Shown in pieces: positions 39,503 through 60,299 of a DNA stretch of 64,000 bases. Where the stretch lies: NCBI RefSeq assembly GCF_037042905.1, contig NC_087251.1, positions 5,396,001 through 5,460,000 of the forward strand. Reading direction: 5' to 3'. A model generated the notes under the pieces. The model had not been told where the DNA came from. It did not search any database and saw nothing but the letters and a program-made list of their open reading frames with translations. This DNA comes from Lytechinus pictus (lineage: Eukaryota). How positions within the stretch are numbered: position 1 is the stretch's first letter; each line of letters starts with the position of its first letter. Both the position numbers and the translations under genes were made by a program.

Positions 39503-40387
39503 CACCTTTACATAAAGGAATGGGTGATGGATAAACAAAACCAAGTCAACTCTAACAAGTTTACTAATACAAATTAGAGCACAAATCAGAAAAGCATAGC
39601 AATGGTAATTCCATTTAAAAAGTTGTGGCACTTTAAATTTCGCTTATTTTCACATACCAGTTATATGCATATCCTGGTCAGTATGAAATATTCCACATGT
39701 CAAAAATTGCACAACAAGACCACTACCTCTTGTCAAATATTTTAACCCCTTTTTTAAAACTACATGAATTACCAGGTCCCAGTACATTGACGGCATTTTG
39801 TCGAAGGTGAATCATCAATATCATACATTTAGTTCATTACTTTCTTCTACGGTGCGTTCTCGAACAATATTGACCTAGCAAAATGGCGGCGGTCACGTGA
39901 CTTATCGAGTTCGCCGGCGATGTTTTGCTTGGGTGAACACGACTTCCACGTATTTCCAGTTCAGTGGTTTTCATACGTGATTAGTCCAAAACACGGTTGC
40001 GTCCATGCTTACTTTCATTTAAACGACGTTTCAAAACGCCGATCGTAAACTCACAAAAAGGTGCGTTTGTAAACGTCGTTTGACCAGAATCAGGCTTTCT
40101 GGGGAAATATAAACAGAACCACGATCATAAATGTGTTGGAATGACGTCATTTGGTACAAGCTTCCGGTGAGATGAAAATCCGCGGGCAAATACAGTCGCA
40201 TTGCTCCATGGTCGCATGTTACCTCCACGGAATTACCTCTCACCTCCCTTGTTACATTTGCATTTTTTATAATTGATTTAAGTACTATCACTATTATTAC
40301 TCTTCCAATTTGTCATCACGATGAATGTTGAGGGATTTACAACAAAAAAAAACCTGGAACATGAGTTATAATGAGGAGACATCGCCA

Positions 40388-40795
40388 GGACAACTACCCC
40401 CCGGACAATTACCCCTCGGACAACTACCCCCGGACAATTACCCCCGAGGACAATTACCCCCCGGACAACTCACCCCCCGGACAATTACCCCCTGAAGACA
40501 ATTACCCCCCGAGGACAATAACCCCCGGACAATTACCCCCGAGGACAATTACCCCCGGACAATTACCCCCGGACAACTACCCCCCCGGACAACTACCCCC
40601 GGACAATTACCCCCGAGGACAATTACCCCCGAGGACAATTACCCCCGGACAACTACCCCCGGACAATTACCCCCGAGGAGAATTACCCCGAGGACAATTA
40701 CCCCCAGAAAATCATCCCTGGACAATTAACCCCGAGGACAATTACCACCGGGAACAATTACCCCCCCCCCCCCAGGACAATAACCCCCTAGACAA
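40388..40795 (+). repeat. GGACAATTACCCCC(GA) ~15-17 bp minisatellite array (left arm)
   Basis: About 25 tandem units; inverted partner at 44120-44417. Confidence 0.92.
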
Positions 40796-40913
40796 AGGGA
40801 GTGCACAGAGTCATACGTCGGCCGTACGTTTGACGTAAGAAGTACTCAAGGCATTCTCGAGTATCTTGGAATCAAACGAACGCTGTAAGAAAGCTGTAAA
40901 AGTGAGCTCCATC

Positions 40914-47917: not shown

Positions 47918-49175
47918 CCCGACCTTTCGCTGGAGAACGCGAGCGCTTATTTACGACGTTAGTTGATTTTGGAAGAGACTTTTGGGCCCGTCGTCATGGT
48001 CGTAAAACTCTGTCCTGCAATGCAAATTGTGTGACATGAGATTTTTTTTTCGTTTCGCATCTGGAACGGAAACATTCAATCTGCGTTTCGTGTGCAAAAT
48101 TCTGGTTGCTACTATGGTAACAGCGATATATTCGATTTAGGACGACTTTCCAGAGCCACATTTGGTTCCTCCCAGAGCTCGAGAGGCCGCCCAGGGGGCC
48201 CACTTCCATTGAAGAGTGGATACCAGGCGCGACCACGCGTAAACAGGGAAAGAGTGGGCAAGTACGTTACGTATAGGCCTATGTAACGTTATAAGGGTGT
48301 CAAAAACGATGTTTAAAAATACTGAAAAGGGGGATATAATACTTCTAGGGTTTCACAAGCTAAATATTTGTTAAGGAATGCATTTTCATAATCTGGAAAA
48401 GACTTGCTTCCCTTGTTTAGGGTGCTTTTCGAAACCACATGGTCGCGCCTGGTATCCACTTATCAATGGAAGTGGTTCCCCCGGGACTTTGAATCTAATC
48501 CCCCATTTCTGGGGAAAGTAAAACATAATGCCCATTACATTGTGTGCTATAGAGGCATGTCGTTTGTGTAGGAGTAAGCAAAAGAAAAAAAACCCGCAAG
48601 GCCTATTGCATACATTGTATGCCGTGAACATATCAACGCATGCGAAATGGTTGCGGCTGAGAGGTGATCTGACCCATGGAATCAATTGCCAGTGATCCAC
48701 CAATAATCCACATTAAATGCAATATCGATTCGATGGACTGTAATGATCTATATCTAAGCCTTAATTCAGTAAGTTTTTCCTCACTCAATATGTACTCGAT
48801 TTGTTTGAAAAACCACTTTCTTATACATGTCATAATCTATTGTAGGCCCTGCATTTCGAATATCTCCAGCCAGCTGTCATAGTAGAGTCTCGCCGCCGGC
48901 TCAGGGGGCATATACGATGATGACCATCAGTCGTACATGCATGAAAGCAGGATTTAATATGGTGAGGGTGTCGCGTGAAAGAATTTTGCACACGAAAAGC
49001 AGATCTATAGGGCCTGTAACACAAAGCTTAGCAATGATTGTAGAGCGGTTTTCTACGTTCGATTCTATTGATAATAATGTACAATCAATCTTAAAAATCA
49101 AGTGTATGATTAATCGTTAACTTTTGTGTTCGGGGACCCTAATGTTACCGTCCCTGAGGTTTGCGAAAGGTGGCT
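47918..49175 (-). mobile_element. composite element 'C', copy 3 (inverted, ATT TSD)
   Basis: att|cccgacctttcg ... cgaaaggtggct|att. Confidence 0.87.
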
Positions 49176-50690: not shown

Positions 50691-51876
50691 CCATGCTAAA
50701 GGCTTGGTCACAGCCCGTCGTGCATGTCTTTGCACGCACGTGCATCGCAGCCTGCAATCCAGTTTGAGTTGTTGTTGGGTTTTTTTTGCAACTAATATCT
50801 ATTGTTGCCATGGTAATATCCAGCTTTAAATCTGTCAGCTTCTTCTCTTTGGCGGCTTTCTATCATTAATTTTGAATTTGAGAATTCTTGAATCAAACGT
50901 ACAGCGCCGCACATGCAAGGCACAATCAACGTGCGACCGACTTGATACTTGTCATGCTTCCACCACGATTATCAGATGACCTTAGTTATGAACGTGCGTT
51001 TAAGGTCAACGCACACCGTACATATAGGTGAGCGGCCAGAAGCCAAAAAGTGCCTTATTTCTTGACTTTAATCCCCCCGGCTGGATCAAAGCAAAATCAT
51101 ACATCAAATTAAAGGAAATTTTCTGAATTTTTCGGAATTGGGCATTAAAAATGCCGTAATGTGTAGCATCACCATGGAAACCAGCCTTGAATAAGCCACG
51201 CCCATTTTAAATACTTATTGAATATTTCTTGTGAATATTGATTTTTTACTCATTAATTTGAATTAACAGGTATTTTTTCTTATTTTCAAAGGATAGATCC
51301 ACTATATATTGTAAGAAGAATTACTGAAAAACAACTTAGCATGAATTTTATGAACATTTTCTCAGAAACTGTTGCCTAGCAACAAAAATTTCCTTAGCAA
51401 CCATTTAGCTCCTTAAGTAAACCACTTATTTTTCCATATCAAACCTAACTTTTAACTTTTTAACTAGGTTAGATTAAACCAAATAAATTACACCAATTAA
51501 ATTCTATAAAGTATTATTGAAACATAATAAAAAGAACTGAAAACCCCCATTTTAACCATTGCGAACCTCAAATAAATTTGCTAAGCTCTAACTGACATAC
51601 CCCTTCACATCGTACAAATCGCCATATTATTTTTTTTTTCAATTTGTTTCCCCTCCACAGGGATTTTATTATTATTCAAAACATAACAAGATATCTTTTC
51701 AATGACAAATCAAATTAATAACAACGAAATACAATACAACAGTAATTGTAACAAATATATAAATTGAACTGTCAGGTTTACATAATAGTAAACAATTTAA
51801 GGAACAAGCAAGGAGTAAATGAACAATAATATTCATATGTATCATTGTACATGGAAAGGGAACTGAACAGATCACT

Positions 51877-54800
51877 TCATGTAAACATGGCACGTAATTG
51901 AAACCATTTCTTTGTAAACTTTACCATTTTACAATTTGACTCTGCGATATATTTTTCATTCTTGAAATAATTCTGAAGTGCAAATTTGATATTATCAAAA
52001 ACAGGTAATTGATGTTTTACTCTGGAAGTATAGATCATCTGTCGTATCACTATCAATAAACAATTTAATGCATAATTACTTGAACCTCTTAAACCAAATA
52101 ATTTTTCTTTATTAGAGAAAAAAATTCTATTTCCAGTTTTAAGAAATATCCATTGTTCAAACCTGTCCCATATATGTTTAATACATGTACATTCACAAAG
52201 TAGATGAGTAACTGTTTCACGGTGTACATTACAAAAAGTACATTCTTTTTGTTGAGCTAAATTAATTTTAAACAATATTTCATTTGTATATAAGATATGT
52301 TGCATTATTTTGAACTGAAACCAACGTAAATTCACATCGGTAGTACAACTGAATCCAATAGAGCAATACGATTGCCATTGCTTGTCATTCATATCGAATA
52401 TACACTTCCACTTAAGGAAACTTTTACATTCCACCTTTCTTTTCTTTTTAAGAATCGTATAGATGTGTGAACAACCTTTATTATATTTCATAACAAGTGC
52501 TATTGTATCAGGGATAATAGGTTCTTGGAACTTGCTAAAGTGTGTGCCATTGCTAAAACCGTCTCTTATAGCATCACATAATCCACGGTAAAAAATAAAA
52601 TTTATTTGAACATTGTATTTTTCCTTAAGGTCATTCAAAGAGAGGAAATTGCCATGTATATCTAAAATATCATTAACAAAACGAACACCCCTATTATTTA
52701 GAGATCTACTGTGAATTGAGCTATTACCTATTTTGATAAAATCATTGTTCCATAAGGGTTGGCAAGGTATATCATTACAGTGCATAGATAACAGTGTGCT
52801 ATACGCTAAGAACATTTCTTTCCAAAAAGGATTTTTAATTTCGTGTGCCAGTCTAAAAAAATAGCTATTTCCCATATAAAGATCCAAGTTTTGCGTTTTA
52901 TGCAAAAAAGACTGAAGAAGACAAATAATATTACCGTCAATGGAACCGTTTATCATTTTTTTCATCCAAGAAATTTTCAATGACTGGCAATGCAGATTTA
53001 TGTCTATCATTTTTACTCCACCTTCAGAATAACTCTGAGACATTTGATTTCTACTTACTTTATCTGGTTTCTCTCCCCATATGAATCTATGAAATTGGGA
53101 ATTTACATCTTTTAGAAATAACTCACTTGGATTCGGGAGAGAAAGAATTAAGTAGTTCAATTTAGACACAAACAATGACTTGACAACCGTAACTCTTCCA
53201 AGGACCGTCAGGTAACGTCTTAACCATGAAGTCATTTGACTTTTGATCTCTTTAAACTTTTCATTGTAATTATGCAATGTCATTTTCTGAAGATCTGTAC
53301 AAAAATCTATACCTAAATATCTGAAGTATTCATCAAATACCCAATTCAAATTCCTATTGACAAGAATACAGTCTTTCTTGTTCTTATATCCTCCAATCCA
53401 TATTGCATGTGTCTTGGTTATATTAACAGTCAAACCTGATATTGTTTTATATTTTTCCAAGATGTCAAAAGCACTACTCAATTCTCTTTCTGAACCGTTT
53501 AATGTCAGAAGAGTGTCATCTGCATACTGTAATATTTTATGACATTTACCAGAGGGCATCCTCAAACCATCTATTGACGTTGATTGTCGAAACAAAACGC
53601 CAAGTATTTCAGCACATAATAAAAAAATATATGGAGACAATGGATCTCCTTGGCGACAGCCCCGCTCTATTGAAAATCTGGGAGACAGGTGTCCATTGAT
53701 TAAAACACAAGATTGAGCATTTTCATAAAACACATCAAACCATTTAACAATGGTCGGACCAAATTTAAAGAAGTGTAGTACATTGCGAATAAAGTCATGA
53801 GAAATTGAATCGAATGCCTTCTCAAAATCTATAATTAACAATAAACCGGGAATATCGTTTAATTCAGTATATAATAATATATCATATAACAAGCGGATGT
53901 TTTCTCCGATAAAGCGTCCGGACATAAACCCTTTCTGATTCTCATGAATAAGAAGAGGGAGTACATTCTTCAATCTATTAGCTATACAAGTAGATCCTAT
54001 TTTGTATACAACATTTAATAATGATATGGGTCTCCAATTTTTTAAATAGTGTCTATCTTTACTTCCTTTGGGGATTAAAGTAATAACTCCTAACTTCTGT
54101 ATGTAAGGCATACCAGATAAAAATGAAGAGTTTAAATATCTAACTAAAAATATATGGATTTCCTTCCAAAAATGTTTAAAAAATTCAACAGTGAATCCAT
54201 CTAGACCAGGAGATTTATTGTTTTTCATATTTGTTAGGGCATAATAAACCTCGTCGGTGGAGAGCTCTCCTTCTAAATTCCGTGACATAGCATTTGTTAA
54301 TTTATTTAGTTCATCTTTGTTTATCATTGCATTTAAATCAATATTCATAACAGGGTGCCTTTCATATAGTTGTGAATAAAAAGAAACAATTTCTGATGTA
54401 ATATCCTCATGTGTTGTTACTTCCTTATTTTCATTGGTAATCAATTTGCATATTCTTTTATTAACAACATTTTTCTTTTCTAAATTTAAAAAATATTTGG
54501 ATGGTTTCTCTCCGAACTCCATCCATTTAGTTCTGGATCTCATCTTTATTTCTTCATTATTTTCTTTTCTCAATGACTCCAACTGAGCTTTCTTCTCATT
54601 CAGAACAGTTAATTCCCTTTCTATATTTGTATTTAAAACCAAATTCTTTTCTAAATTTACAATTTCTTTCTCTAAATCATTTTCTAGATTAACGGTTTTT
54701 TTCTTTTTTGCAGCAGCATATGAAATTGTTTCACCTCTAACAACTGTTAACAGCGTATCAAAAAACAGCTGATCGCTTACATTAAACTCATACCAAGGAT

Positions 54801-55674
54801 TTTGACCATCTACTACATTTCCACCGAATCTTACCGGTCGGGTTGAGTAGGTATCAATTGTTTGTTGAATAACACCTTTAATCAGTTCTATATAAATATC
54901 ATCTTTTAACAATGAATTGTTAAATTTCCAGTAACTCGGTCCTGTCTTACAATGATTTAGATTCAATGATAACTTCACCAACGAATGATCAGTTCTGTAT
55001 CCTGGTAGAATTTCTATTCTGTTAACAAGAGACATTAATTCATGAGATACAAGAAAATAATCCAATCTGGCTGCCTTAAATGGAGTGGGTTGGCGCCATG
55101 TAAATATCTTTTCATGTTCATGTAATTCTCTCCATGGATCCACCAGGCTTAAGTTAGTTTTCATTTCATCAACTCTTTTCTTTGCGTTTGGATTATTCAA
55201 ACGAACATAATTAAATGTGTCTTTATCAAAATTTTGGACCAAATTCCAATCACCACAAAAAATTGTTAAAGGGTTTTCAAATTCTAATGCAACATTTTCA
55301 ACATCTGAATAAAAGTTAACATTGTCTTGGTTAGGGCCATATAGAGATATCAATGTTATATTATAATCATATATCTTAAGATCTAAAGCAACAAAATTCC
55401 CTTCGGTTGACCTTTTGATTTGATTTATATTAAAAATAACACCCTCCGCAAAGAGAATGGCTACACCTCTAGCATTAGACGTCTTATGACTAAAAAAACA
55501 ATTATCTCCCCAAATAGTTTTTATTGAAACTTCTTCTTCACCTACAAAATGAGTGTCCTGCAAGCAGCAGATATGAAACTTTTTTGCCTTAATATATTCT
55601 AAGACATCATTTCTTTTTTTACTATTTCCTAAACCTCGACAGTTCAAAGAAATTATACTGAAACTACCCATCAT
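51877..55674 (-). CDS. L1/Tx1 ORF2: APE endonuclease, reverse transcriptase, C-terminal CCHC
   Basis: 1265 aa uninterrupted. EN motifs SLNCRGL, LQDTH, GDWN, RLDY, TDH. RT motifs KSPGLDG, WRPISLLN, DFEKAFD, GCRQGDPLSP, QYADD, YLG. C-terminal CTFC-x8-HLLCEC. Confidence 0.97.
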   Translation of the reverse strand: MMGSFSIISLNCRGLGNSKKRNDVLEYIKAKKFHICCLQDTHFVGEEEVSIKTIWGDNCFFSHKTSNARGVAILFAEGVIFNINQIKRSTEGNFVALDLKIYDYNITLISLYGPNQDNVNFYSDVENVALEFENPLTIFCGDWNLVQNFDKDTFNYVRLNNPNAKKRVDEMKTNLSLVDPWRELHEHEKIFTWRQPTPFKAARLDYFLVSHELMSLVNRIEILPGYRTDHSLVKLSLNLNHCKTGPSYWKFNNSLLKDDIYIELIKGVIQQTIDTYSTRPVRFGGNVVDGQNPWYEFNVSDQLFFDTLLTVVRGETISYAAAKKKKTVNLENDLEKEIVNLEKNLVLNTNIERELTVLNEKKAQLESLRKENNEEIKMRSRTKWMEFGEKPSKYFLNLEKKNVVNKRICKLITNENKEVTTHEDITSEIVSFYSQLYERHPVMNIDLNAMINKDELNKLTNAMSRNLEGELSTDEVYYALTNMKNNKSPGLDGFTVEFFKHFWKEIHIFLVRYLNSSFLSGMPYIQKLGVITLIPKGSKDRHYLKNWRPISLLNVVYKIGSTCIANRLKNVLPLLIHENQKGFMSGRFIGENIRLLYDILLYTELNDIPGLLLIIDFEKAFDSISHDFIRNVLHFFKFGPTIVKWFDVFYENAQSCVLINGHLSPRFSIERGCRQGDPLSPYIFLLCAEILGVLFRQSTSIDGLRMPSGKCHKILQYADDTLLTLNGSERELSSAFDILEKYKTISGLTVNITKTHAIWIGGYKNKKDCILVNRNLNWVFDEYFRYLGIDFCTDLQKMTLHNYNEKFKEIKSQMTSWLRRYLTVLGRVTVVKSLFVSKLNYLILSLPNPSELFLKDVNSQFHRFIWGEKPDKVSRNQMSQSYSEGGVKMIDINLHCQSLKISWMKKMINGSIDGNIICLLQSFLHKTQNLDLYMGNSYFFRLAHEIKNPFWKEMFLAYSTLLSMHCNDIPCQPLWNNDFIKIGNSSIHSRSLNNRGVRFVNDILDIHGNFLSLNDLKEKYNVQINFIFYRGLCDAIRDGFSNGTHFSKFQEPIIPDTIALVMKYNKGCSHIYTILKKKRKVECKSFLKWKCIFDMNDKQWQSYCSIGFSCTTDVNLRWFQFKIMQHILYTNEILFKINLAQQKECTFCNVHRETVTHLLCECTCIKHIWDRFEQWIFLKTGNRIFFSNKEKLFGLRGSSNYALNCLLIVIRQMIYTSRVKHQLPVFDNIKFALQNYFKNEKYIAESNCKMVKFTKKWFQLRAMFT

Positions 55675-56592
55675 ACATTGAATCTAGCATTGAGTTATGA
55701 ACAATAATTCCTGTGGAGGCTTTTTCAGTTTTTTTTAACACTGACAACACAAACACAAAACAACAAACAAAAACAAACATAAACACTTGACACACAAACA
55801 AGACAACACTAAACATGATTTCACGCGAAACGAACAAGGAAGACATGGCGCATACCATCGCGCCTAGGTCCTTATCCAGGCCTTCAATATTATGCCAAAG
55901 AATAGAAACTGAAATCCACTACTTTTTAGGCACTGTAAAAATGTCTGTACATTTCGTGCAAAATTTTTTTGTGCGCAAGGCAACCAGAAATAATCTACAT
56001 AAAACAACCAGTATGTGAGTAAACGAAGTATGCGTTATTAATACCAGGACTCTGTCATTCTTCATTATCAAAGATTATAAAGATTATTTAGTCAATTGAA
56101 TGCACAGCCTTGCATATACATAAAAGTCCTAGTTTTTTTTTTTTAACAGCATTTTTAAAAATATCATCCAATAAATAAAACCAACTTTCTGAAACCGTTA
56201 GTAGTCAGTAGATGTACTTATTTCTTATTTTCTCGCATACTTACTACTTTTCCATAGACATACAAATAACATTGGTGAGAACTATACCAGTTTACTTGAG
56301 CTACACGTTATTCATGTACTTTCTTTTATATTACTTTCTTTCATATTATTACAAAGTACCCCATAATAACAAAACCAAAAAAACCAAAAAACCCAAAACA
56401 TTAATAATAATAAAAGAAACTTTAAAGAACAGCCACAATTTTTTCATGTCAAATACATAACTGAAAAACTTAAAATCATTAGATCTTGAAAGGTTTAGCC
56501 AACTCTAAAGGCCTTAAAAAACATGAAATTAAAAATTTCTTCAAAGGTTAACCAAATCCTTATTTGACATCTCTATTATTTGGAGATGCATG

Positions 56593-56623
<31 letters not shown>

Positions 56624-57168
56624 TAAAAGCAGCAACTAAGTCTTTATCATCCATGCTATGAATAAAAGCCATGAGATAAAAACACTCAATTTTTTTTATT
56701 CGAGCAGTACAAAAGAAGCAGAAAGGATTTTTTTTTAAATGTTAATACTGGGTCTCATAAAACTAAAGTATTCTTTATGCCCTTTCCATTTTGGCACAAA
56801 ATCCCCGTACAAGTTCTATTCTATTTTTTCAAAAATATTTTGTTATCATCCAGGTAAATTGTTATCTTGTACTGGAAAATAGGCCTATTCATTTTGTTTC
56901 ATGTAATAGACAACAAAAACATTCCATTGCCCATCAGTTCATGTAGGCAAAAATAAAAAAACATGTGCTTATCTTTCTTTAGTATGACATGGAAAAAGCA
57001 ATGTATTAAGAACTTAAAAAATGAAAACTAAGCACTAGAAATGGAATGGATGTAGTCCAAAGTTAAATGAAGGTAATATAAACCGCTTGGGATGATTCTT
57101 TTTTTCAGGGAAGTCCGAAAGTAAAAAATATAATGATCTAAAACTTGATGATGAGTAAATCTGCAAAG

Positions 57169-58152
57169 CTAGCCATTCACAGTTTTCCATTCTGAGTGGA
57201 TTGAGCCCCTTTCTCTGGTTTGTAGATATAACTTGACTCCAATCAGCCTGATTCTAGTCGACTTATTTTCCTCTTTACGGATTCTGTAGGCCTCTTTCTC
57301 GAGTAGGTATCGATGCTTTTTCAATTGAGGAGGTAAATCTACGACGAATCTCCATGGGAAATGTTGTGACTGCGTAGGTGACTTGTCTCCTCTTCTTGAT
57401 GTCCATTGCTGGTAGGCGTTCAAGACCTTGTTTCGATCCATCATCGAGACAAATCTGATGATGACTGGTTCTGGCGATTGTTGGCTGCCGCCTTGAGCAC
57501 GGCGGGGTAGGCGGTGAGCATTACTGAGGAGTATATCTTGCTGAATACCCATTTCTTTGAAGACCTTTCCCACCACATCGACAATGTTCTCATCAGTTTC
57601 TCGTTTTGCCCCATATAGCAACAGATTCATTTTTCTATCGTAGATTTCAAGTGCACTAAGCTTCACATTCAAGTCAGACTCTACTCTTTGTGTTTCCTTT
57701 CGCATGCTTGGCAATGATTCATTTTCAATTTTGGTTAGCCTATCAGAAGAGTCAGTAGCAAAATTCTCTAAATCAGCTATTGATTTCTTAATGTCTATGA
57801 TCTCCTTTCTCAGAGAAGATACATTCAAGTTCATATTATCAATTTTGTCAATAATTGTGTTTGTGACCTTTAGAAATTCAGCATGACTCACCGGTTCGTT
57901 TTTTTCCGCCATATTTGATTCTTGCGTAGGCCTATCTCTATGTGAAGTTACGGGGTGGGCAAACGTCGCTTTTTCGGCGGTGTTTTCTGGTGTAATGCTG
58001 CCTGTAGATGGGGCGTCTGTGCGTATTTGGGGTGCGGGTGCACGTGGTCGAGTAGTTGAGTCCCTATTTGAGTCACCTTTATCACCTTTTTTTCCTTTTT
58101 TACGAAGAAAATATGGGTCACGTCCTGGATTATGCTTTGCAGAGTCACTCAT
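57169..58152 (-). CDS. L1/Tx1 ORF1 (coiled coil, RRM, CTD RNA-binding protein)
   Basis: 327 aa. Basic/disordered N-terminus, heptad-rich coiled coil, then LE..DRKMNLLLYG, NAHRL, PEPVIIRF and DLP motifs typical of L1-type ORF1p. Confidence 0.9.
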   Translation of the reverse strand: MSDSAKHNPGRDPYFLRKKGKKGDKGDSNRDSTTRPRAPAPQIRTDAPSTGSITPENTAEKATFAHPVTSHRDRPTQESNMAEKNEPVSHAEFLKVTNTIIDKIDNMNLNVSSLRKEIIDIKKSIADLENFATDSSDRLTKIENESLPSMRKETQRVESDLNVKLSALEIYDRKMNLLLYGAKRETDENIVDVVGKVFKEMGIQQDILLSNAHRLPRRAQGGSQQSPEPVIIRFVSMMDRNKVLNAYQQWTSRRGDKSPTQSQHFPWRFVVDLPPQLKKHRYLLEKEAYRIRKEENKSTRIRLIGVKLYLQTRERGSIHSEWKTVNG

Positions 58153-58909
58153 ACTAGATTATTTCCAAAGTTTGAGGCATATTACATCCTGAATTTGGGT
58201 CCTAGGCGAGATTTTCTAGTCAGAAGACAATGGGTTGCGGCCGTCCTCCATGACGTTGCGCGAGAAAAATTATGTTCATTTTGACTGCATGCATTGAAAC
58301 ACGTATGTACAAGTCACATACTTTATACTATTTTGTGGTGAAAAAGTTGATTGAGTTAATAATACCTGATCAATTAACATGTAGTATCTTGTCTTCAATA
58401 GAACAACAACAAAATGACCATTTCATATTACCCATGGATACCAATTCATTGCCTAGCAACGACTATTTTCCATAGCAACGACTATGTTAACACTCTTTTC
58501 CCTGGACAAATCTGTGGAAAAATGGTTTATTATGAGCAATAATACTGACACAATTATCATATAGATGCCTACAACCTCGTTTTCAATAATCATTCAACAA
58601 ACTGACTATTTTATAGCTTCCTTGGAGACAAAAGTGTTGCCTAGAAACAATATTCCCTAGCAACGGCTATGTTACCACTCTTCATCTCGGCCAAATGTGC
58701 TGAGGAAGTTGTGCCTTAGAGTAAAAATATTGAGAAAATTAACATGATAGTTTGTTATCGATAGGCAAACAGCATTCCGGAGTTGTACTATTATCTACTG
58801 ACACAATTTCATTGCCTAGCAACACTATTTACCTTAGCAACGATGTATTTTCCCCTTAAAAATCTTGAGGAAAATAATCCACTTTTAAGTGTGCAGTACC
58901 ATTTGTTAA

Positions 58910-59506
58910 AGGGATGGTCCAGGCTGAAAATATTTCTATCTAAATAAATAGGGTAACATTCACAGAGCTAAATGCTGAAAATTTCTTAAAAATCGGATAA
59001 CAAATAACAAAGTTATTGAATTTTAAAGTTTATCAATATTTTTAAAAACAGTTATATGCACATCGTCATGAATATTCATTAGGTGGGCTGATGATGTCAC
59101 ATCCCCACTTTCCTTTTTCTTATGTTAATACATGAAATCATAAATGTTTCATTATTTCATACATGCGTAAATGATGTGTCTGCATTATGATGAAATAAGT
59201 TACGGCAATAAATAACTAATGTACTTAATCAGTTGTCAATTGTTTTAGTTCTTGGTAGAACAATTTTGAATAAACCTAATTTCATATAATAAATTACAAA
59301 AGAAGAAGTGGGGATATGACATCATCAGCCCACCTAATAATATTCATAAAGACATACCTAGAACTGTTTCACCGGAATAATGCAAATCTTTAAAATTCAA
59401 TAACTTGTTATTTCTTATCCGATTTGGATCAAATTTTCACCATTTTGCTTTGTGAATTTTACTCTTTTAGTTGAGATATAGAGATTATCCAGCCTGGACC
59501 ATCCCT
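58910..59506. mobile_element. Kolobok-like MITE
   Basis: ttaa|agggatggtccaggctg ... cagcctggaccatccct|ttca. Long internal inverted symmetry (ttaggtgggctgatgatgtca / tgacatcatcagcccacctaa). Confidence 0.88.
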
Positions 59507-60299
59507 TTCAATAATATACCTACATGCATACTGGCAATGGTAAATTAAAGGACACCACTTCATTTCTCTTATTTCAAAAAAAAATCATTTATCCTTGTTT
59601 GTATATTGCTTGTCTACCAATTCTAAACAGTGCGATGAGCATGGCATTTAAACTTATCATATATAAAAGAGCAGCTTCAAAGAGAAAGTTAAATGTTGAA
59701 GATAAAAAGAGAATAATATGGTTTGGAGGATTCATAGCTGGGTACAAAACATTTTTTAGTGTGCTACAGTAGGTATAGCATTGATGATATAATAGAATGG
59801 ACAACACTACTCTTCAGGCACAGTCCCTGAATTTGATCATAAAGTGGGTCTTCACCTAAGGCTTATACAGATATTTTTTTTCAATTTCAGAGACGTCCTA
59901 TACTCAATTCAGTCATTTGCAGAGGCTTTTGGCTGCATATTCAGATCACTTTCCTCGAGTGAATATAGAATGGTTTACAAATGGATCTGTTTTGTCAAAT
60001 AATACCTAATCACCCATGCATGTCCAACTTCCAAGGTTGTGTCTGTGTGGAGGCTGTAGCCCAAAGATGCCCAAGTTGTGAGTTCGACAAGTTTCTGTTG
60101 AAACTTTAACGCAATGGCAAAAATAAGCTGCTGAAAACTGCTTATCTAATAAAAGAGAGCCAAAAACTTTAATACTATTACTAAGTGTCAGAAGTTTAAT
60201 CACAGGGAACTTATAATGTCACTTTCAATTTGATAACTGGCAAGAAATCAGAGGGATGAAAGTATGAAAACTTGGGATCTTAAGCCTTAATATGATGGT

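Follow-up and report, generated by a model that had tools for sequence, protein, structure and literature searches.

How a long interspersed element (LINE) translates its second open reading frame (ORF2) when this lies hundreds of bases behind ORF1 is treated as an open question in the available sections of two papers, in which vertebrate L1 is proposed to have had the long spacer ancestrally, with the guess that the spacer contains a site for internal ribosome entry (IRES) (PMC5381506, PMC3894237); the accessible text of the first of them predicts IRESs and reports no spacer structure in common (PMC5381506). In SART1, by stop-start coupling, and in human L1, ORF2 is reinitiated after an upstream ORF; in both elements that ORF is ORF1, the spacer is absent or 63 nt long, and the structure described for SART1 is local and downstream (as summarized in PMC5972666, PMC3894237 and PMC2881922). 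The nearest precedent for a hidden ORF of the kind described below is found in the small spacer ORFs of megabat L1, which also has a long spacer, for which reinitiation has been proposed, and in which removal of the spacer AUGs lowers mobility 3.3-fold; in the accessible part of that paper there is no mention of a single conserved ORF lying over the start of ORF2, of a hydrophobic product or of pairing to the 3' end (PMC4072516). Here we analyze a window of 64,000 nt of Lytechinus pictus DNA (NC_087251.1, positions 5,396,001 to 5,460,000 of the forward strand; coordinates below are those of the window), which carries on its minus strand a full-length copy of an L1/Tx1-type LINE, family F1. In contrast to SART1 and human L1, ORF1 of this element ends 1.5 kb away from ORF2, and a third, hidden ORF, which we call ORFx, abuts the ORF2 start. 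We find that the leader of ORF2 is complementary to the extreme 3' end of the element; the long-range pairing is almost certainly real and under selection, and ORFx is very probably a selected reading frame. The features on which the argument rests are the following.

51630..58269, minus strand: full-length young L1/Tx1-type LINE copy (family F1), delimited by genome copies, their common 3' end and target-site duplications
51630..51639, minus strand: poly(A) tail, from the sequence and the 3' end common to the copies
51652..51661, minus strand: core long-range helix, 3' strand, between the AAUAAA and the poly(A) (duplex scoring, folds, covariation)
51665..51670, minus strand: AAUAAA, half covered by the second helix
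51668..51678, minus strand: second helix, 3' strand (11 bp, of which one is G-U), without conservation in F5 or F7 (whole-element fold)
51877..55674, minus strand: ORF2, 1265 aa, with APE endonuclease, reverse transcriptase and a weak zf-RVT (Pfam, structure match)
55664..55858, minus strand: ORFx, out of frame, 64 codons, its UAG starting 8 nt past the first letter of the ORF2 AUG; intact in six of six F1 copies
55675..57168, minus strand: ORF1-ORF2 spacer, 1494 nt, with 43 AUGs
55698..55708, minus strand: second helix, leader strand (ORF2-region and whole-element folds)
55710..55719, minus strand: core helix, leader strand, 45-36 nt upstream of the ORF2 AUG and, counted from the ORFx stop, 53-44 nt upstream (duplex scoring, covariation)
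55736..55819, minus strand: GU-rich tract encoding a hydrophobic, membrane-like part of ORFx (19-residue Kyte-Doolittle mean 2.94 at best); a run of A that specifies lysines comes next
57169..58152, minus strand: ORF1, 327 aa, without a Pfam match; Atlas leads point to coiled-coil/FP-like and Transposase_22 clusters

The inverted repeat pointed out in the initial annotation is present as an exact match of 10 bp, seven of them G/C, between 55719-55710 in the leader and 51652-51661 in the tail; the 3' strand stops 12 nt short of the poly(A), and the ORF2 AUG is at 55674. A second helix joins 55708-55698 to 51668-51678; it includes the single G-U pair that had been announced, is 11 bp long instead of 10, and is extended by three further pairs. 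The overlap of the pairing with the AAUAAA (51670-51665), also put forward at that stage, is confined to the first three letters of the signal and is due to the second helix. The leader/tail duplex of F1 has a predicted energy of -34.0 kcal/mol, a value as low as which was found in none of 3000 dinucleotide shuffles (mean -13.0, lowest -28.9). Within the element, scored in 635 windows, nothing pairs better with the tail than the leader does, and the reverse also holds; the long-range helix is present in the minimum-energy folds of both the 4.2-kb ORF2 region and the whole 6,643-nt element. Over 51400-58500, Rfam yielded nothing with an E value of 1 or less. Twelve nucleotides of the second helix's leader strand (55707-55696) recur at the start of the 3' untranslated region (UTR), at about 51820-51835, where they fold as a local hairpin; this repeat could compete for the same 3' strand.

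Since the F1 element contains 129 exact 10-mer inverted pairs in total, and the leader motif of F1-F3 resembles a 3' splice site, the complementarity could have arisen by chance, or by accident between two motifs kept for separate reasons, such as a splice acceptor and a protein site. Comparison with sister families makes this highly improbable. These families were found by an endonuclease-domain search of the same genome, leader and tail being taken from one or two copies of each; their identity to F1 is 65% (F2), 58% (F3), 50% (F4), 49% (F5) and 46% (F7), and F6 and F8 are copies of F5 and F3. The helix is kept with different letters in F1, F2, F3, F5 and F7, that is, in five of the six close families, F4 being the exception over the 117 nt of its leader that were compared. 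The leader/tail pairs are CCUCCACAGG/CCUGUGGAGG in F1, CUCCACAGG/CCUGUGGAG in F2, CUUCCGCAGG/CCUGUGGAAG in F3, UCCCUCCGAUGG/CUAUCGGAGGGA in F5 and ACCCACAGUAG/CUACUGUGGGU in F7. With the register anchored by hand, columns 2-10 are paired in 45 of 45 cells, with seven double changes in six columns and two G-U changes; column 1 is broken in two of the five families. The cognate assignment of leaders to tails ranks first of 120. The pairing thus survives through compensatory changes, the outcome that the proposed comparison of related families had been meant to look for, and the covariation largely refutes the chance reading, against which also stands the pairing of distant relatives via different sequences (see below). 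The 3' strand of F5 was predicted from its leader before the tail was retrieved and matched save for one G-U; a pattern search for the predicted tail had given no family-level match (11 scattered matches, 5 in the control), because the real tail has the G-U variant and no upstream AAUAAA. F2 appears weak in nearest-neighbor scoring because low-complexity masking cut its helix; unmasked, it reaches p=0.001. Among the distant families of the same genome, no leader-tail pairing was found in F9 and F10, and F11 has an AT-rich duplex that is borderline (shuffle p=0.005, cross p=0.076).

Use of the leader motif as a 3' splice acceptor was considered and rejected: the CAG is absent in F5 and changed in F7, an A-run precedes the motif, and no joint was seen there at low read depth. 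Three or four consecutive G immediately precede the A-rich end in all six tails (L061, L062, L064, L226, L240 and 51649-51655 of the window), among them that of F4, the family without the long-range partner, which suggests a separate, sequence-level role. In an F3 locus (C7:27210087-27215005) ORF1 lies about 4 kb upstream of ORF2, and in an F5 locus (C20:1552356-1561219) about 8 kb, owing to a very long spacer or to an insertion.

Farther afield, 151 loci were collected from metagenome and genome-bin contigs, of which 43 had both ORF2 ends with flanks and 39 remained after near-copy removal. Under a nearest-neighbor duplex model with low-complexity masking, nine of the 39 beat shuffled leaders, eight beat shuffled tails and four beat cross pairs (p=0.13); the same number pass all three controls, namely L082 (13 bp), L090 (15 bp plus), L081 and L075. 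Ungapped-helix scoring gave a mixed picture (4/39 against cross leaders, p=0.20; 8/39 against own windows; 7/39 against shuffles), and lenient gapped alignment gave 4/39 against shuffles (p=0.13). Pooling of 29 elements shows an excess of cognate pairing in the stretch from -100 to -25 of the AUG, with a mean Z as low as -1.1 over a background of about -0.2. The helix sequences of the four positives are unrelated to that of F1. Their leader strand lies within 85 nt of the AUG in every case, and the 3' partner is at the ORF2 stop in L081 and L082 and in the middle of the UTR in L090 and L075; that the 3' partner moves while the leader strand stays near the AUG suggests that the function is tied to the ORF2 start. 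In a quick tree (46 rows, four elements left out, midpoint root, no named Tx1 reference) these four and F1-F3 share one supported branch, with positives in 4/10 inside and 0/25 outside, a count made post hoc and among kin, which share traits. As the positives are confined to this branch, the helix is a trait of one sub-branch and not of all L1/Tx1 elements. The sisters L082 and L159 have a common GAGCAA/UUGCUC core in leader and 3' UTR, next to a U-A to C-G change. Most of the 71 loci from bacterial bins (L152-L222) look like animal-type LINEs, several near full length, which points to host contamination; no relative was found in viral contigs.

The leader strand does not lie in plain spacer. 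In F1 it falls within ORFx, which starts at 55858 and ends with a UAG at 55666-55664; an ORF in the same frame has 104 codons in F2 and 55-56 codons in F3, and 24 of 26 copies across the three families keep ORFx intact. ORFs of this length are uncommon in shuffled sequences (p=0.009, under 0.001 and 0.022 in F1, F2 and F3; 0.014, 0.001 and 0.053 when blocks are shuffled). To survey relatives, we counted AUG-started ORFs of at least 45 codons ending within -2 to +25 of the ORF2 AUG; 83 loci have an ORF2 start, 56 of them with the AUG and 400 nt upstream, and 48 were left once five near-copies and three loci with ORF1 overlapping ORF2 were excluded. Half of these (24/48) carry an ORFx, when 1.6 are expected from shuffles (maximum eight in 20,000 draws) and the reverse-complement control yields 2/48. 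With the position of the stop left free, 24 of 40 long ORFs end in the -2 to +25 window and none at +26 to +50, and stops in the ORFx frame are nearer the AUG than those in other frames (24/25 within 23 nt, p=0.004). The stop is at +8 from the ORF2 AUG in F1 and F2, at +11 in F3 and at +1 to +23 in the 24 relatives, eight of which have the AUG-nn-stop form. The peptides are more hydrophobic than those of shuffle-derived ORFs (p=0.002); none of 25 matches Pfam, no Atlas match reaches 0.9, and mutual similarity is near nil (three weak matches). From these sequence properties, ORFx is probably translated. A programmed frameshift fusing it to ORF2 is disfavored, as both out-frames are used (17 and 7 of the 24). 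ORFx and the helix meet in the same place: the four strong distant positives all carry ORFx, and the leader strand is inside it, ending 37-48 nt before its stop in F1, F2, F3, F5, L081, L082 and L090 and about 70 nt before it in L075.

This arrangement recalls the termination upstream ribosome-binding site (TURBS) of caliciviruses and influenza B, where, in the part of the literature available, the upstream stop likewise overlaps the downstream AUG and a cis element is located 40-90 nt before that stop (PMC5972666). The TURBS, however, pairs with 18S rRNA through UGGGA (PMC5972666, in part), whereas the F1 leader pairs with the element's own 3' UTR and the upstream ORF is small and dedicated; the UGGGA of motif 1 occurs in none of F1-F3 and in 2/24 relatives. 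The leader strand may therefore work like a TURBS by position without being one. The reading that we favor, with moderate confidence, is that ribosomes which have translated ORFx and terminated there resume on ORF2, with the helix keeping the poly(A) and poly(A)-binding protein (PABP) about 45 nt upstream. Ribosomes would reach ORFx by some route, scanning from ORF1 being unlikely given the 43 spacer AUGs, and would melt the helix in passing; upon termination on top of the ORF2 AUG the leader strand would be freed and the helix could re-form behind the ribosome, setting the 3' UTR and poly(A)/PABP beside it and so promoting the restart. Through such proximity, nonsense-mediated decay, which a poly(A) fold-back is known to suppress (PMC2689704, seen in part), may also treat as normal a stop that is 4 kb away from the 3' end, and ORF2 would be made best from RNAs with their own 3' end intact. 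Bringing the poly(A) end to the ORF2 start, the purpose first proposed for the pairing, thus still seems the likeliest one; direct internal entry at the ORF2 AUG, which had been part of that proposal, fares worse, since an upstream ORFx that overlaps the start with its stop and holds the leader strand points to stop and restart instead. The parallel with the 3' cap-independent translation enhancers (3' CITEs) of Tombusviridae and Luteoviridae has similar limits. There, too, a short pairing across kilobases brings a 3' element to the start region; in the sections available, however, 3' CITEs are described as binding eIF4F, pairing with the 5' UTR of uncapped RNAs and not promoting internal entry (PMC5382211), whereas in F1 it is the internal ORF2 leader that is paired, and poly(A)/PABP would be what is brought to it.

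How ribosomes might come to ORFx is suggested, for F1, by the fold of the whole element, in which the 117-nt 5' UTR pairs almost entirely, and in order, with the distal spacer: 58263-58227 with 55821-55861, 58208-58188 with 55861-55880, and 58166-58143 with 55986-56009. The features concerned are these.

55821..55880, minus strand: distal spacer strand predicted to pair with the 5' UTR (58263-58227, 58208-58188), overlapping the ORFx AUG (whole-element fold)
55986..56009, minus strand: spacer strand predicted to pair with the end of the 5' UTR and the start of ORF1 (58166-58143) (whole-element fold)
58188..58208, minus strand: 5' UTR stem strand starting 7 nt after the stop of the short ORF, its partner ending just before the ORFx AUG (fold, duplex scoring)
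58216..58251, minus strand: short ORF of the 5' UTR, 11 codons, in a strong start context (sequence)

These spacer strands are the best partners of the F1 5' UTR among 145 scored duplexes (p=0.007). In F2 a 10-bp match between 5' UTR and spacer ends 32 nt before the ORFx AUG (p=0.003-0.01), and in F3 no such pairing was found within the approximately 42 nt of its 5' UTR. The best duplex lies at most 120 nt from the ORFx AUG in seven of nine elements, against 2.2 expected, for a zone chosen post hoc and with F1 and F2 included. The predicted layout resembles that of the short-ORF shunt of cauliflower mosaic virus and of rice tungro bacilliform (RTBV) and spherical (RTSV) viruses, since the F1 short ORF ends 7 nt before a stem that opens onto a downstream AUG, the viral distances being, in the text available, 7 nt in RTBV and 8 nt in RTSV; in duck hepatitis B virus a shunt over the first long ORF reaches the reverse transcriptase gene (PMC5902531). 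It differs from the viral cases in that it is known from folding only, that the skipped loop would be 2.3 kb, that the short ORF has 11 codons and that conservation is weak. Predicted 5' UTR-spacer pairing with a shunt-like layout in F1 is therefore a lead, and the first step of the stop-restart model may in this family be cap-driven shunting past ORF1. A 5' UTR-spacer helix of 15 bp is also seen in the region of L120:2245-2259 (p=0.007-0.01), in an element without a detected ORFx. In F1, moreover, the start of ORF1 (58152-58134) is complementary to the region of its stop (57169-57151; 6+10 bp, p=0.004). This bracket is absent in F2, F3 and F5, occurs in 1/20 relatives and, when the whole element is folded, gives way to the 5' UTR-spacer pairing; we treat it as family-specific or due to chance.

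Several observations weigh against the stop-restart model or its parts. An unrestricted duplex between 200 nt of leader and the whole 3' UTR is no better than shuffles (498/500 as low), and leader and tail strands, predicted alone, are each mostly paired locally. F4 has no long-range helix in its 117 nt of leader, and the one decayed copy of F7 has its leader strand at -94. The pooled signal of the relatives peaks at -100 to -55 and not at -45. ORFx is much commoner than the helix (24/48 against 4/39), from which it follows that restart does not need the helix. Shunt-type pairing is weak in relatives (3/18 beat shuffles, 1/18 beats cross pairs), the RNA reads are too few and give no signal at the leader, and the fold-back published, as far as the accessible text goes, pairs downstream of the stop and not upstream (PMC2689704).

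Moreover, the place that the 3' strand of the helix takes in other families is occupied in F4 by a local hairpin, which favors a role at the 3' end. It is compatible with the helix serving as a double-stranded stem 5' of the poly(A) that is gripped by ORF2p for the start of reverse transcription; with the partner strand 4 kb upstream, 5'-truncated transcripts could neither form the stem nor steal ORF2p. Human L1 ORF2p indeed binds an RNA stem adjoining a poly(A) tract, and in the Alu-type substrate the helix is likewise directly 5' of the poly(A); unlike the long-range helix of F1, the Alu stem is local, and the human L1 3' UTR is described in the available portion as being without such a stem (PMC10830416). 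The 3' strand is within about 15 nt of the A-tail in F1, F2, F3, F5 and F7, and an identical 24-nt tail motif is common to F1 and F2 despite the 65% identity of their endonucleases; a search with this motif gave 81 matches only, so that no abundant short interspersed element carries it unchanged. A docking stem does not explain, however, why the partner lies inside ORFx near the ORF2 start, and in L081, L082, L090 and L075 the 3' strand is far from the poly(A). We consider such a stem, the strongest competitor of the stop-restart model, unlikely as the main purpose of the pairing, although the two can both hold.

The 3' strand lies between the AAUAAA and the tail in F1, F2, F3 and F7, and the second helix touches the AAUAAA in F1 and F2, as would be expected if pairing regulated 3' end formation by masking the signal or by shortening the distance to the cleavage site. 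Masking, one way in which polyadenylation could be regulated as suggested at the outset, is not a conserved feature: no AAUAAA precedes the 3' strand of F5, the second helix is missing from F7, and the distant positives pair elsewhere in the 3' UTR. Regulation of 3' end formation is thus quite improbable.

The four raw RNA runs at hand gave 112-283 reads each, mostly on the 3' half of the element; in the two apparently stranded runs the first mate lies mostly on the minus strand, which in most stranded libraries would be antisense to the element. In runs X22 and X23 depth is near zero over most of the spacer, with some reads on ORF1 and ORF2, as if ORFx and ORF2 were made from a separate subgenomic or spliced RNA originating in the distal spacer. 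The helix would then be an ordinary 5'-3' closure and ORFx a regulatory upstream ORF, and no shunt would be needed. Against this, the read gap could itself stem from divergence of organism B, the CAG-G that resembles an acceptor in the leader motif of F1-F3 is absent in F5 and altered in F7, and these four low-depth runs revealed no joint or start cluster at leader or spacer. The reads neither support nor exclude a spliced or subgenomic RNA, and on the whole we think that origin improbable.

Returning to the stop-restart model, it can be extended into a scheme, possible but doubtful, in which long-spacer L1/Tx1 LINEs are tricistronic and express ORF2 by a relay of long-range RNA pairings. The capped 5' end would pair beside ORFx, and ribosomes would shunt over ORF1 and make a short peptide of membrane-like character, by which the RNA may be docked on membranes; they would then restart on ORF2 at the overlapping stop with the 3' end of the element held alongside. 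The two ends of the RNA would come together at the ORF2 start, inside a stretch of about 100 nt, and only full-length RNA would yield reverse transcriptase. The T-rich spacer repeats and predicted IRESs of fish and frog L1 might be such ORFs. A hidden ORF overlapping the ORF2 start with its stop in half of the relatives tested, together with a covarying long-range helix, offers a specific and mutable alternative to an IRES; if true, the LINE gene set would include a third product, hydrophobic and evolving fast, and there would be an RNA-level way of favoring intact templates. Each ingredient is known from viruses, and their combination in a LINE was not found in print: literature searches, with subscription papers mostly outside their reach, found no report of leader-3' end pairing or of a conserved third ORF in L1/Tx1.

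The assignment of the element itself rests on several lines of evidence. ORF2 matches Exo_endo_phos and RVT_1 of Pfam, zf-RVT remaining under its cut-off, and its closest solved structure is human L1 ORF2p (E 4.5e-87; R2, 3.9e-24), in a comparison for which few clades have structures. The 812-Mb genome contains at least 43 matches to F1 at 91-100%, mostly 5'-truncated and with a common 3' end, 40 of 297 candidates having been scored; 14 of 21 F1-type copies have duplications of 7 nt or more at their ends. The 3' UTR is about 240 nt long. By its ORF2 domains, separate ORF1, poly(A) end, 5' truncation and duplications, F1 belongs to the L1/Tx1 group. Target-sequence specificity is a trait of many, not all, Tx1 elements; none was found for F1, the flanks of whose copies differ save for two duplicated pairs. 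On both sides of the LINE (51371-51407 and 58426-58847) there are repeats of a TTGCCTAGCAAC-type motif, which suggests insertion into another repeat. Just upstream of it, at 58901-59515, is an element of about 600 nt with long nested inverted arms (74-88% complementary), resembling a miniature inverted-repeat transposon. Two more inverted-repeat pairs, at 48190-48485 (46 nt, 89%) and 48079-49004 (25 nt, 96%), are probably small DNA transposons, and a repetitive frame of 155 codons at 40371-40838, with DNYPP/GQLPP units, is probably a minisatellite.

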